A DNA stretch of 63,996 nucleotides, counting the filler, from a bacterium (GTDB lineage Bacteria > JAMORN01): the NCBI GenBank assembly GCA_027063545.1. It is 16 parts of 16 records of this genome, joined end to end, with 100 filler letters (N's around TTAATTAATTAA, not from the genome) between each part and the next. Parts side by side here need not be neighbours in the genome. Positions count along the whole stretch, not along the records: positions 36,945 to 40,850 come from JAMORN010000245.1; 15 more parts are not named here. The stretch is one strand, 5' to 3'. The translations under genes and the position numbers were made by a program. Below are positions 4,064-40,850 of the stretch, piece by piece (positions within the stretch are counted from its first letter, which is position 1; the number at the start of each line of letters is the position of its first letter). The notes below the pieces were generated by a model. It ran no database searches. It was not told the origin of the DNA and saw only the letters and a list, made by a program, of their open reading frames with translations.

Positions 4064-4163
4064 NNNNNNNNNNNNNNNNNNNNNNNNNNNNNNNNNNNNN
4101 NNNNNNNTTAATTAATTAANNNNNNNNNNNNNNNNNNNNNNNNNNNNNNNNNNNNNNNNNNNN
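4064..4163. other. Artificial contig linker N44-TTAATTAATTAA-N44 (first of 15)
   Basis: Identical 100-bp linkers at 4064-4163, 8216-8315, 12362-12461, 16497-16596, 20598-20697, 24683-24782, 28761-28860, 32837-32936, 36845-36944, 40851-40950, 44849-44948, 48841-48940, 52817-52916, 56789-56888 and 60752-60851. The core gives stops in all six frames, and contig lengths decrease monotonically. Confidence 0.99.
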
Positions 4164-8115: not shown

Positions 8116-8315
8116 CTTTTATTTTATAAAAATAAATAATTTAAACCTATAAAAATATTATTTGCATTAAAACTATTATCTGTAAAGTTTAATATATAAA
8201 ATTTATACATAACAGNNNNNNNNNNNNNNNNNNNNNNNNNNNNNNNNNNNNNNNNNNNNTTAATTAATTAANNNNNNNNNNNNNNNNNNNNNNNNNNNNN
8301 NNNNNNNNNNNNNNN

Positions 8316-14246: not shown

Positions 14247-15818
14247 TTACTTCTCTTCTAGTTTATCTTTTATGTTTATATATGCAATTATAATGGTAGC
14301 TGCAGAAGCCGCAACAGCTAATACATCTTTTACAAGCTCCCATGAAGGTCGATTAGTATATGATACAAACTCTGGTACATATATCACATCACCTGGATAT
14401 AAAGGGGTTCGAGAATAAAGTTTTTCTATTTTACCATTTCTAGATCTTATAACCCTAATTAAACCATTATAAGCAAATCTATTTTTTCCTCCTGCTAAAT
14501 TTAGATAATAAGTTCCTTTTTTACCTTCTATCCATTTATAACATCCTGGCTTTCCAACCCATCCAAATACACAAACAACTTCACTTTTAGCTGGAACAAA
14601 AACCGTATCTCCATCTTTTAATTTTATATGCAAATCAAGATTTTTATTCTTATAATCTGAAAATCTAATCATATTTAAAAATCTAAAATTTTTAAAAGGC
14701 CCTATATTAATGTAATGATTTCTTTTTATGTATATACCATAAAGATTAGCATCTTTAGTTAACCCAACTTTTTCTAACAATGAATCTAATGTTAAGCTAT
14801 CAAAAAATCCATATATACCAGGTCTTATTACTTCTCCTTTTATTTCAACCTCTTTAATCCTTGCAAACTTCCAGTTGAATGCTACATAAACATGCATATA
14901 AGGCTCTATTTTTAACTTTTTAAGTTGTGATAAAGTATATATCTTTGTCTCTTTTTCCAGTGGATAAACAACTTGAATATATGAAGTATCTGCATATAAA
15001 GTAACACCGCCTGCTAGTTTTATAAAATCATAAACATTTTTCTCTTCATTGGTTATCTCATAAACATCCGGAAAATTTACCGCACCTTTTATATAAACAA
15101 CCTTATCTTTAAAATTAAACTTTATTACATCTCCATCATTTAATACAGGATTATATCTTAAATCTCCTGTTACCAAGAATTTTCTTAAATCTCCTCTTAT
15201 TATAGTATCGTTTCTTATAATTTTTATATTTCTTAAAGATACTTTCTTAGGAAATCTAGGAATATATACAGAATATCTATAATACTCTGGCTTAGCTGTC
15301 AAAAATTTTGAACTAACTTCCTCTGTTTTATCTGTAAAACTCTCATTCCTAGATAAATTTATTAAAGCATCCTGCTCACCTATTTCATAAGATCTCAAAT
15401 TAAAATCTTTAAATCTATATCCTTTATAATTTATAGATTTTAATATTGTTGATAATCTTGACCCCGAGGGTAAAAGCAATTCTCCAGGATATTCTATTGC
15501 CCCAACCAAAGTAATCTTTATTGTTCCTGGTCCAACTTTGTACACTGAAAATTTTATATATTTTAATTTTTTCTCTAGTATTTTTTCTAATTTATTTTGT
15601 AGTTCAGATTCTGTGTAATTTTTAACTGTTATTGTTGAATCTAAATAAGGTAAATAAATCTTTCCACTTTTATCTACTACTACATATCTTGAATAACTAT
15701 AGTCAGGCCATGATTCTATATATAATATATCTCCAGGAGATATATAAGAGCCATAAAGATTTGAAATTAATAAAAAAATTATACTACTTAAAATTATGTA
15801 CAATTTCTGTAAATTCAT
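14247..15818 (-). CDS. Polysaccharide export protein with Poly_export and multiple SLBB domains (Wza/KpsD-like)
   Basis: YISPGDILYI...VDKSGKIYLPY and repeated V.G.V..PG.Y / L.DGD.I SLBB motifs. A signal peptide follows the ATG at 15818. Confidence 0.88.
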   Translation of the reverse strand: MNLQKLYIILSSIIFLLISNLYGSYISPGDILYIESWPDYSYSRYVVVDKSGKIYLPYLDSTITVKNYTESELQNKLEKILEKKLKYIKFSVYKVGPGTIKITLVGAIEYPGELLLPSGSRLSTILKSINYKGYRFKDFNLRSYEIGEQDALINLSRNESFTDKTEEVSSKFLTAKPEYYRYSVYIPRFPKKVSLRNIKIIRNDTIIRGDLRKFLVTGDLRYNPVLNDGDVIKFNFKDKVVYIKGAVNFPDVYEITNEEKNVYDFIKLAGGVTLYADTSYIQVVYPLEKETKIYTLSQLKKLKIEPYMHVYVAFNWKFARIKEVEIKGEVIRPGIYGFFDSLTLDSLLEKVGLTKDANLYGIYIKRNHYINIGPFKNFRFLNMIRFSDYKNKNLDLHIKLKDGDTVFVPAKSEVVCVFGWVGKPGCYKWIEGKKGTYYLNLAGGKNRFAYNGLIRVIRSRNGKIEKLYSRTPLYPGDVIYVPEFVSYTNRPSWELVKDVLAVAASAATIIIAYINIKDKLEEK

Positions 15819-16496
15819 GTAATTGTTCCCATTTATCTCTATCTTCAAAATAATTTCCAATTACTATAAAATCAGCTCCCGCTTCTAACTTGGCTTTTAT
15901 TGTCTGTTTATCCCTAATTCCTCCACCTACCATTAAAGGAATATCCTTTAATACCATACTTACCTTTTTTATCATTTCCTCTGGTACTGAATACTTTGCT
16001 CCAGAACCAGCCTCAAGATATATCATTTTCATCCCTAAATAATAAGCAGCCAAAGCATGAGCTACAGCTAAATCACTCTTTTCTCTTGGAATTGGCCTTG
16101 TGTTAGACATAAACTCTACAGTTGTTGAAATTCCAGACTCTACTAAGATATAAGCTGTTGGTATAACTGGGAAATTATTTTTAAATATTAAAGGAGCTGC
16201 TATAACATGCTCTCCAATTAAATATTGAGGATTTCTTCCAGACACTAAAGATAAAAATAGCATACCATCAGCTTCAAAACAAATTTGACTTACTCCTCCT
16301 GGGAATAGAATTAATGGTATATTCAAATGATTTTTTAATTTTTTTACTAATTCTTTTGTTGTTTTATTTACCAATATTGAAGAACCTATTAATATAAAAT
16401 CAATATCTGCTTTTTGGATATTATTAATTAAATTATCAATTAAAGATAAGTTAACTTTATCCGGATCTAATAAAAGGCCAAAACCTTTTTTATTCT
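15784..16496 (-). CDS. Geranylgeranylglyceryl/heptaprenylglyceryl phosphate synthase (group II type), 5'-truncated
   Basis: Frame open to the contig end (LLLDPDK...FILIGSS). PLILFPG, SLVSGRNPQYLIG, YLEAGSGA, VGGGIR, GADFIVIGN. Confidence 0.92.
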
Positions 16497-36944: not shown

Positions 36945-37277
36945 AGTAAAAATAACAAGAGGATATATTATCCAAAATTTATCTTTTTTGTAATAAAAAT
37001 ATCCTCCTATTATATAATTTATACCATAAAATATAGAGATCAAAACTTCAACATTACCTGTTAACACAAATCTAAATATATTAAATGCTATAAAAAATAA
37101 TGCTAACATACTATATATTAATACATTATAACCTGAAAATAGTAAAAAAAATACTACAGGCATTAATATATCTTCATATAAAAGAGCTAAACTATCAATC
37201 CTATAGTAAATAGATAATAAATATATTATAGTAAATCCAATTAAACTATAATTAAAAATATCTAACTTTCCACGCAT
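36945..37277 (-). CDS. Membrane protein, probably YybS/DUF2232-like, 3'-truncated
   Basis: Highly hydrophobic; overlaps the end of the S6-S18 gene, the position DUF2232 usually occupies between rpsR and rplI. Confidence 0.5.
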
Positions 37278-37774
37278 TGTGCAGAGAAAGGTAAAAATCC
37301 AACAATTCTAGCTATTTTTATTTCCTTAGCTATTCTTTTTTGGTATTTTTGAGATAATCCAGTATTTTTTCTTGGTAAAATTTTTTGATATTCTGATAAA
37401 AATCTCTTTAAAATATCAATTTTTTTATAATCTACATCAACTTTTTTACCATCAATTGTCAAAATAACCGGTTTTCTTAAATCTAAATTTCTAATAAAAT
37501 ATCTTAATAAAGCTTCATTATGATATAACTTCTTCTCTAACTCTTCTTTTACCCAAGAAGCTGGAGCTTTGAAATAATAAACTACATAATAACCAAATCT
37601 TTTCTTTTTAATTGGATAAGCGAACTCTCTTTTTCCTAATTCTTCCTTTTTAAAATCTTCAACATTTTCTTTTAAATAAGATTCTAACTTTTCAACCTCT
37701 GTTGCCAAATCTGAATCAGCATAGTTGAGATCAAAAACTACTAATAATTCATAATTTCTCTTTCTTTCTGCCAT
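37262..37774 (-). CDS. rpsF-rpsR: Fused 30S ribosomal protein bS6-bS18 (rpsF::rpsR)
   Basis: aa 1-98 are S6 (RNYELLVVF, LGKREFAYPIKK...GYY...F.AP, LLRY). aa ~99-170 are S18 (VDYKKIDILKRFLSE..KILPRKNTG.SQKYQKRIAKEIK.AR..GFLPF). No stop or ATG lies between them. SD AAAGGAGG. Confidence 0.92.
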   Translation of the reverse strand: MAERKRNYELLVVFDLNYADSDLATEVEKLESYLKENVEDFKKEELGKREFAYPIKKKRFGYYVVYYFKAPASWVKEELEKKLYHNEALLRYFIRNLDLRKPVILTIDGKKVDVDYKKIDILKRFLSEYQKILPRKNTGLSQKYQKRIAKEIKIARIVGFLPFSAQCVES

Positions 37775-37780
37775 CTTATA

Positions 37781-37826
37781 CCTCCTTTGGCCTTACGCTG
37801 TCCCTTCTAAAGGGACAGAGAAGGTT
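37781..37826 (-). ncRNA. S6:S18 (rpsF leader)-type cis-regulatory RNA
   Basis: Transcript reads CCTT-CT-CTGTCCCTT-TAG-AAGGGACAG-CGT-AAGG-CC-AAAGGAGG-TATAAG-ATG: a 9-bp hairpin, then CC next to the SD, with a 5' CCTTCT able to pair with the SD. Confidence 0.65.
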
Positions 37827-37901
37827 TATAATTGTTTAGTTTATATGTTGTTAGTTGTTTTAAGTTAAATATAAATTTTTTATACAAATTATTCTAAAAA
37901 A

Positions 37902-38990
37902 TTATACATTAAATCTTATAACTAAAATATCACCATCTTTTACAATATAATCTTTGCCTTCTAATCTGATAAGTCCTAATTCCTTAGCTTTAGCGTAACC
38001 TCCAACTTTTATAAAATCCTCATATGAAATAACTTCTGCTGCTATAAATCCTTTAGCCATATCTGAATGAATCTTTCCTGCTGCCTCAACTGCTGTAGAA
38101 CCTTTTTTTATGGTCCAAGCATGAATCTCTTTTTCTCCAACTGTAAAAAATGTTTCCAATCCTAATAAATCATAACTCTCACGAATCAATTGCTTTAATC
38201 CAGATTCCTTTATTCCTAATTCTTTTAAAAACTCTTCTTTTTCTTCTGGTGATAAGTCTCTTAATTCTAATTCTATCTTTGGACATATAGCTATTATTTT
38301 AGCCCCTTTCTTCTCAACATATTCTTTTAATTTAAGATAGTACTCACTACCTTCTGGATTTGCAATATCATCCTCACTTAAATTTGCAGCATAAATAACT
38401 GGCTTTAAAGATAAGAAATTATAATTCTTTATATTTTTTAAATCTTCTTCTGTTAATATAGATTTATCCTCTTCTTGACTTATAACTTTCTCTACCTTTA
38501 ATAAAGATTCATAAATTTTCATTGCTTCCTTATCTTTGGCTTTAGCTTTTTTCTCTAACTTAGATTTACTTCTTTCTATTATCTCAAGATCTGCTAAAGC
38601 AAGCTCTGTTTCTATTACCTCTACGTCTCTTATTGGATCTACACTACCATCTACATGAACAACATTAGGATCATCAAAACATCTTACAACATGAACTATA
38701 GCATCTACTTCCCTTATATTTGATAAAAATTGATTTCCTAAACCTTCACCCTTTGATGCCCCTTTTACAAGACCTGCTATATCAACAAACTCTATTATTG
38801 CAGGGACCTTTTTTTTAGTATGAACAATTTTATCTAATTCTTCAATTCTAGAATCCGGTACCTCTACAACACCAATATTAGGTTCAATAGTACAAAAAGG
38901 ATAATTACCCACATCTGCATTATAATTAGTCAAAGCACTAAATAGGGTTGATTTTCCTACATTTGGGAGTCCTACAATTCCCAACTTCAT
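37902..38990 (-). CDS. ychF: Redox-regulated ATPase YchF
   Basis: [54 protein letters not shown]. Confidence 0.98.
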
Positions 38991-39010
38991 ATAACTCTCC
39001 TATTTTTATA

Positions 39011-39051
39011 AATAAAAAATTCCCGCCCATCAAACTTAAAGAGCGGGAATT
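39011..39051 (-). terminator. Intrinsic terminator after hppA
   Basis: Stem AATTCCCGC / GCGGGAATT followed by TTTTATTT on the minus strand. Confidence 0.75.
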
Positions 39052-39084
39052 AATATTATTAACACTATTACGATTAAACTTAAA

Positions 39085-40850
39085 CTATTTCTTTAAATTT
39101 ATAGTATCAATTTTCGCTTTTGTTAAAGAGTTGTTTTGCTGTATATTTTTTACACTTATTTCTTTCTTTGTTGTATCTTCTAAAGACTTAGTATTTATAT
39201 TAAAAGAAACTAACATAGGTGCTATTATAAGAGATATAACAGAAATTAACTTTATCAATATATTCAATGAAGGTCCTGATGTATCCTTAAAAGGATCACC
39301 TACTGTATCTCCTACTACAGCAGCCTTATGAGCTTCACTACCCTTTCCTCCAAAATGTCCTTCTTCAATAAACTTCTTAGCATTATCCCAAGCTCCTCCA
39401 GAATTAGCCTGAAATAAAGCTAATAATACTCCTGTTACTGTAGCTCCAGCTAGTAAACCACCTAACATTGCTGGTCCACCCAAAAATCCAACTAAAACCG
39501 GTGTAATAATAGCAATTAAAGCTGGAACCATCATCTTCTTAATTGCTGCATTTGTTGAAATTTCTACACATCTGGCATAATCAGCTTTCGCCTTTCCCTC
39601 CAGTAATCCCTCAATTTCTCTAAATTGTCTTCTAACCTCTTCTATCATATCTTGTGCTGCATCGCCAACAGCTTCCATCGCTAAAGAAGTAAATAAAAAT
39701 GGTAAAACACCTCCTAAAAATAGTCCTGCCATTACTAATGGATCTGCAACATTTATACTATCAAGTCCCACTGTTTTCATATATGATGTAAAAAAAGCTA
39801 AAGCAGTTAAAGCAGCAGAGCCTATAGCAAAACCTTTACCTATAGCTGCTGTTGTATTACCTACAGCATCTAACTTATCTGTTCTTTCTCTAACTTGAGA
39901 TTCCAATTCACTCATTTCAGCAATACCACCTGCATTATCTGCAATTGGACCATAAGCATCTACAGCCAATTGTATTCCTGTTGTAGCTAACATCCCTAAA
40001 GCAGCAATTGCTATACCATAAACACCTGCTAACATATAAGCTCCCACTATAGCAATAGCGATTACTATAACAGGATAAGTTGTTGAATACATACCCACAG
40101 CTAATCCTTTTATAATATTAGTAGCTGGTCCCATTTGAGAAGCCTCAGCAATCTCTTGAGCTGGCTTTTTATCTTTTGCTGTAAAATATTCAGTTAACAT
40201 TCCTATGGCTACACCTGATGCCAATCCCAAAACTGTTGCTCCAAAAATCTTATTTGCTATAACAACATCTGTAGAAAAATATCTTATTATAAAATAAGAA
40301 GCTATAGCTGTAACAAAAGCAGCTGTAAATGTTCCTTTATTTAAAGCAGCCTGTGGATTCCCATCTTCTGTTGTTCTAACTAAAAAAGTAGATAATATTG
40401 AAACAACAATACCTACCACAGCTATCCATAATGGTATAAGTAAATAATTTACATCTCCAAAAGCAGCTATTCCTAGAATCATAGAAGATAATATAGATCC
40501 CACATAAGATTCATATAAATCAGCTCCCATTCCCGCTACATCTCCAACATTATCCCCCACATTATCTGCTATTGTTGCAGGATTTCTAGGATCATCTTCT
40601 GGTATTCCTGCCTCAACCTTTCCTACTAAATCTGCACCAACATCCGCAGCTTTTGTATATATACCACCTCCTACTCTAGCGAATAATGCTATAGAAGATG
40701 CCCCTAAAGAAAAACCAGAAAGTATAGGCAATACAACTTCCTTCAATATTTTAGGGTCTGTTCCAAACATTTTTGTATATAGAATATAAAGAAGAGATAA
40801 TCCTAAAAGTCCCAACCCTACAACATTCATTCCCATAACAGAACCACCAC
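39085..40850 (-). CDS. hppA: Membrane-integral K+-stimulated (probably Na+-translocating) pyrophosphatase, 5'-truncated
   Basis: [55 protein letters not shown] (Ala variant), [14 protein letters not shown]. Confidence 0.96.

Follow-up and report, generated by a model that had tools for sequence, protein, structure and literature searches.

Ribosomal proteins S6 and S18 must pair before they bind rRNA. In the canonical bS6:bS18 heterodimer (1g1x, 1fjg, 4ybb; T. thermophilus, E. coli) the partners are two chains made from separate genes, rpsF and rpsR, whereas a short contig from a metagenomic bin carries the same two protein families in a single chain (P0001), encoded by a single reading frame. 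The locus raises the questions of whether the two genes are truly joined, whether such a join is peculiar to this organism, and how one chain could do the work of the pair. We conclude that P0001 is a genuine single-chain S6-S18 protein, of a kind that is recurrent and, in the literature searched, little described. The stretch 37262..37774 should accordingly be annotated as a fused rpsF/rpsR gene and not as a misassembly.

The fused gene and its contig

The window, by which we mean the whole stretch of DNA analysed (positions 1-63996), is a concatenated bin and not a single molecule. It is made up of 16 contigs sorted by decreasing length, from 4063 down to 3145 bp, with a GC content of 23-31% per piece. 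The contigs are separated by spacers of the form N44-TTAATTAATTAA-N44, which lie at 4064-4163, at 8216-8315 and then at every ~4 kb. Because of these spacers, any ORF or gene neighbourhood that runs across one is unreal, and several ORFs end in X runs. In fact the seemingly adjacent K+ channel and DUF89 genes sit on contigs other than that of the fused gene. The host is an AT-rich uncultured bacterium of hydrothermal-vent metagenomes; the CysRS encoded on another of the contigs had ESM Atlas matches of mixed phyla. The contig with the fused gene is 100% identical to a JGI metagenome contig (L002) over 3906 bp. Its features are as follows.

36945..40850: contig with the fused gene, 3906 bp
37262..37774, minus strand: fused rpsF-rpsR gene (P0001), 170 aa, ATG start, TAG stop
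37481..37774, minus strand: S6 half, aa 1-98, from PF01250 and solved S6 chains
37265..37480, minus strand: S18 half, aa 99-170, from PF01084, TIGR00165 and solved S18 chains
37478..37483, minus strand: junction codons D98/L99, where the S6 core ends and S18 starts, from the codon table
37781..37787, minus strand: Shine-Dalgarno (SD) sequence AAGGAGG, 6 nt before the ATG, read from the sequence
37902..38990, minus strand: ychF (ribosome-binding ATPase), upstream of the fused gene; YchF-GTPase_C 1.1e-36, MMR_HSR1 8e-23
39085-40836, minus strand: H+-pyrophosphatase gene, 5'-cut, on the same contig
36945..37277, minus strand: ORF, 3'-cut at the contig end (36945), matching 0 Pfam families

The sole complete true neighbour of the fused gene on this contig is ychF. 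The cut ORF on the other side encodes a hydrophobic product; its first 16 nt overlap the 3' end of the fused gene, with which it may be co-transcribed. A promoter/terminator scan found 7 signals against 8.1 expected from shuffled sequences, and no terminator.

A preliminary description of this DNA had read the 170-aa ORF as an in-frame fusion of S6 and S18, and profile searches bear this out, both Pfam and both NCBIfam models scoring above their curated cut-offs. Ribosomal_S6 (PF01250) matches aa 7-94 over profile positions 1-88 of 90 (E 1.1e-17; 64.4 bits, cut-off 27), and Ribosomal_S18 (PF01084) matches aa 110-161 over the entire profile, positions 1-52 of 52 (E 1.8e-17; 63.6 bits, cut-off 21). 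Of the NCBIfam equivalogs, TIGR00166 (S6) scores 55.2 bits (cut-off 42.9) and TIGR00165 (S18) scores 67.1 bits (cut-off 38.75), the S18 match beginning at model position 14 of 70. Solved S18 chains align to the protein from aa 96-115 to aa 163-168 (best E 1.4e-14); since this S18 homology reaches back to aa 96-100, there is no linker after the S6 core.

The junction itself reads as had been claimed, with neither a stop codon nor a Met; the one other possible start codon in its vicinity is the TTG at L105, which has no SD-like sequence ahead of it. The coding parts for S6 and S18 have no ssb or priB between them, in contrast to ordinary rpsF/rpsR loci. The acidic C-terminal tail of S6 is missing from P0001, and so is the free basic N-terminal arm of S18, the residues that precede the S18 match belonging to the S6 core. 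The Pfam and NCBIfam match ranges agree with the earlier reading that both ends are gone: the long S6 tail is lacking, and the S18 match leaves out the first ~13 model positions. In both respects P0001 differs from canonical bS6:bS18. The observation that the S18 half lacks N-terminal cysteines was likewise correct: aa 99-166 are Cys-free, and the first Cys of this half is C167. The Zn-binding (Cys-rich) form of S18 is recognized by its N-terminal cysteines, which P0001 does not have, while stand-alone S18 relatives such as P0003 carry C-x-x-C in this part of the protein. The preliminary description called the Zn-ligand cysteines usual for S18, but S18 without cysteines is probably common. The S18 half had further been called divergent, and its motif SEYQKILPRK does depart from the consensus ExGKIxPRR of the fusion alignment described below (A3), but its score is three times the Pfam cut-off.

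For comparison with an ordinary locus we used the one hit of a genome-contig search with P0001, a Patescibacteria MAG (L001) with the ordinary order rpsF-ssb-rpsR. The preliminary description had suggested looking through the rest of the bin for separate genes; when the SSB, S6 and S18 proteins of L001 were used as phmmer queries, the fused ORF was the only match on all 16 contigs, with no second S6 or S18 on the 15 others. The SSB query had no match in any of the window's 381 stop-to-stop frames, and neither an SSB nor an L9 family was present among the 40 window ORFs scanned against Pfam. The window being a set of contigs, the SSB result says little about the genome, and ssb can be called absent from between the S6 and S18 coding parts, though not from the genome as a whole.

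Relatives and assemblies across the junction

P0001 was used as the query of an exhaustive phmmer search against 1.84 billion representatives. The top match, P0013, is a protein of 168 aa on a 96-kb contig, 54-55% identical and aligned over 6-169. A second relative, P0162 (169 aa), is 79% identical to P0001. Both align with P0001 without a gap at the junction, in agreement with the earlier argument that the fusion is not a one-base error. Around the junction, residues I94, R95, D98, R100, K101, L105 and G109 are identical in P0001 and P0013, and C167, encoded at about 37274-37276 and lying four residues before the C-terminus, is identical in all three proteins.

The second phmmer match, P0002, is an S6-only protein of 95 aa on a 763-bp contig, 78% identical to the S6 half, and might be taken as an argument against a lineage-wide fusion. 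That argument is countered on two grounds. The 90%-identity cluster of P0002 includes the full fusion P0162, and when a single T is removed in silico from the run of T at codons 92-94 of the window DNA, the resulting tail is P0002-like with one residue different, a mismatch compatible with a synonymous Arg codon in the P0002 strain. From these sequences we infer that P0002 is a frameshifted copy. The fusion is fixed in the vent lineage to which P0001, P0162 and P0013 belong.

We also compared assembled contigs from three runs labelled hydrothermal vent metagenome (X1, X2 and X3), a comparison made at the level of contigs and not of raw reads. In X1, which is possibly the source sample, one contig of 3909 bp spans the whole stretch compared, with 0 differences. 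In X2, a second sample, a 412-bp contig lies over 37141-37552, also with 0 differences, so that the junction is bridged in another sample. Coverage from X3 was of 37594-37940. The contigs of X1-X3 list no variant or indel within the fused ORF. A check of the junction in sequence data had been proposed in the preliminary description, and at contig level it favours the fusion, the X1 and X2 contigs both crossing the junction unchanged.

Distribution of S6-S18 fusions

The fusion had been presented as if it were unique, and this does not hold. S6-S18 fusions recur across many bacterial lineages, and P0001 is not a first. Among the best 150 phmmer representatives, 46 match both halves, with S6 followed by S18 in every case; since fusions score on both halves and rise in such a list, the share of 46 in 150 should not be read as a frequency. 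Forty-four of these 46 representatives (without P0039 and P0087), together with P0001 and P0162, form alignment A3 (n = 46), all of whose members match both Pfam families. The linker between the halves varies across the 46 fusions from ~0 to 152 residues, most having 13-75 and one 152. By phmmer envelopes it is 0-2 residues in P0001, P0162 and P0013, and other short-linker fusions are P0023, P0075 and P0122. Because linker lengths differ, the fusions appear to be independent of each other. Outside its own small lineage, P0001 is 25-36% identical to the aligned fusions.

Clusters in the ESM Atlas that combine S6 and S18 have 88, 90, 56 and 55 members, of which those with labels are mostly Pseudomonadota or Gemmatimonadota; one such cluster is auto-named 'Multifunctional fusion protein'. 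Fusions are found too in Patescibacteria, where at least 15 of 301 sampled genomes have a stop-free fused gene, in 16 places (best 150 of 574 matches), a fusion being counted where a stop-free match ran from model position <=3 to >=179. In 14 of these 15 genomes nothing but the fused gene matches S6 or S18 among the best 150 of 574 matches, and such fusions can therefore be the sole source of both proteins. In three other genomes (G200, G128 and G215) the match spans both halves with 1-3 TAA codons inside, again among the best 150 of 574 matches. Six Patescibacteria loci were fetched, and in five of them one ORF of 197-205 aa encodes both halves with a linker of ~40 residues. The sixth (L086:1441-2193, from G200) has rpsF and rpsR adjacent and in the same frame, 24 nt apart with stops, an arrangement that is plausibly a pre-fusion state, one step from fusion. 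The other natural fusions compared (P0014-P0018, the Atlas clusters, and those of G108, G185, G276 and G168) have the same S6-S18 order as P0001, whose lineage stands at the compact extreme, without the S6 tail or the S18 N-terminal arm.

One Patescibacteria genome (G232) has two fused S6-S18 genes, on contigs C21 and C89, which could reflect two copies, two strains or contamination.

Metagenomes give a measure of the other side. A scan with alignment A2 had no matches, and one with alignment A4, based on the S18 motifs of the vent lineage, yielded 147 relatives. In the best 80 of these, 79 loci are stand-alone S18 and only L002, the contig identical to ours, is fused, which makes fusion the minority state overall. 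A search of openly available literature, by titles and the starts of abstracts, found no description of a natural S6-S18 fusion; in one candidate, PMC10817156, the passages compared were irrelevant to such fusions. The value of these observations is in the recurrent pattern with its differing linkers, more than in P0001 alone.

Structure, possible regulation and proposed origin of the single chain

AlphaFold2, supplied with the 46-fusion alignment, models P0001 as one compact body (mean pLDDT 96.0, pTM 0.89) with no segment below 50, and the 10-residue blocks around the junction have pLDDT values of 96-98. The S6 half is modelled with strands at 5-15, 39-55, 58-71 and 89-96 and helices at 20-37 and 72-84, which is the ferredoxin-like S6 fold, and the S18 half with an N-terminal hairpin (strands 104-107 and 110-113). 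In fold searches with this model, which included Foldseek, solved S6 chains match residues 5 to ~100 with Z of 14-15 and rmsd of 1.5-2.7 Å over 91-97 residues. The T. thermophilus S6 chain aligns through model residue 107, indicating that the natural C-terminus of S6 runs where the fused chain enters S18. The structural match lists are filled by S6 chains, so that support for the S18 half comes from sequence. A solved chain spanning both halves was found neither among the best 60 of 120 solved-structure sequence matches nor among the 50 best-ranked rows of each fold search. The ESM Atlas model of its own has a pTM of 0.80, and it resembles a 206-aa fusion cluster labelled Gemmatimonadota with TM 0.83 over 160 residues. 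That the two halves are arranged as in the S6:S18 heterodimer is a prediction, taken from the confidence of the model.

The residues that would be needed for this arrangement can be proposed from published work on the pair. In the part of Babina et al. 2015 (PMC4647458) that we drew on, the S6:S18 interface comprises S6 residues 44-49 (RQLAYP) and R85 with Y23/K24 of S18, and the S18:RNA interface comprises K60, R61 and R63 of S18 (E. coli numbering). Mapped by motif onto that part of the study, the putative counterparts in P0001 are REFAYP at aa 49-54 for the S6 interface loop, Y116/K117 in the DYK motif at 115-117 for S18 Y23/K24, and K153-I-A-R156 for the RNA-contact block, which reads AIKRAR in the consensus of the 46 fusions. 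R156 never varies across the 46 aligned fusions, and K153, Y53 and R91 hardly vary. Kept residues of this kind fit a protein under selection for the normal S6/S18 job, as far as sequence comparison can suggest. Very probably, then, P0001 is a genuine and functional rpsF-rpsR fusion, in which the S6 core is followed directly by the S18 core and the halves are packed in a heterodimer-like way.

It is extremely improbable that an assembly or sequencing error has joined two adjacent genes here. Coverage is low (word depth ~8 in X1 and 5.6 in X2), the comparison is of contigs, and X1 may be the source sample itself, but the ORF holds no leftover spacer, stop or second start, the same junction recurs in P0162 and P0013, which are diverged and come from other data sets, and the second-sample contig from X2 is identical in sequence. 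A gene that is truly fused might still yield two proteins, either by cutting of the chain or by production of S18 from an internal start as well. We regard this as very unlikely: the TTG codon at L105 near the junction might conceivably serve as such a start, yet neither a Met nor an SD-like sequence comes before L105, the junction residues are conserved, and the junction is modelled as well packed, at the pLDDT of 96-98 given above, and not as an exposed linker.

The organism could, on the other hand, have separate rpsF and rpsR genes as well, in which case the fused gene would be a redundant paralogue or a recent fusion resembling a pseudogene. The existence of the truncated variant P0002 is what one might expect of an extra or decaying copy. 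Against this, the junction and the functional residues are kept down to 54% identity, a strong SD precedes the fused gene, the other 15 contigs of the window hold no second S6 or S18, and fusions were the sole match in 14 of the 15 fusion-bearing Patescibacteria genomes (best 150 of 574 matches). An extra copy is thus unlikely.

Expression of the fused gene might be controlled by its own product. The spacer between ychF and the fused gene is 127 nt, and part of it is predicted to fold.

37780..37825, minus strand: predicted leader structure, 46 nt, from fold prediction

In the predicted leader the SD is base-paired within a 7-bp outer helix that encloses a 9-bp inner hairpin, and two adjacent cytosines lie in an 11-nt internal loop on the 3' side. 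This layout is similar to that of the rpsF leader as given in the part of PMC4647458 used here, with an H1 that includes the SD, an H2 and two conserved cytosines. The z-score of the fold is only -1.55, and the 46-nt stretch in isolation folds differently. Rfam gathering-level matches in the window comprised one tRNA and no leader family, and at E values of up to 10 the region 37700-37960 gave three unrelated weak matches only. We consider 37780..37825 a candidate autoregulatory site, to be used as a lead.

As to origin, rpsF and rpsR may first have become adjacent without ssb, the stop codon and the spacer between them being lost afterwards; the Patescibacteria locus with the two genes 24 nt apart shows such a state. 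The single deletion of ssb proposed in the preliminary description is equally plausible. Fusion would have cost S6 its flexible tail and S18 its basic N-terminal arm. The resulting single chain could bind the central-domain platform of 16S rRNA as one unit after S15, its built-in 1:1 complex replacing the bimolecular step in which S6 and S18 pair. A fuller reading is that the linker-less fusion is the only S6/S18 source in the vent lineage and acts as an armless single-chain platform module, which represses its own mRNA through a leader hairpin that sequesters the SD. This we put forward tentatively, as a possibility that falls a little short of an even chance. If it is true, the lineage has a ready-made minimal module for platform assembly and for S6:S18 autoregulation that does without a dimerization step. 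A natural fusion of the two proteins indicates that evolution can hard-wire the S6:S18 pairing step, and that some lineages can do without the S6 tail and the S18 N-terminal arm.

Two minor observations were made along the way. A 189-aa metagenome protein (P0019) has two near-identical tandem S6 repeats and no S18, which may reflect either a duplication or an error of assembly. Elsewhere in the window, at 15784-16374 on the minus strand of a different contig, a gene of the PcrB family (E 1e-33; prenyl-glyceryl-phosphate synthase type) is truncated where the contig ends; it might aid in placing the bin taxonomically.
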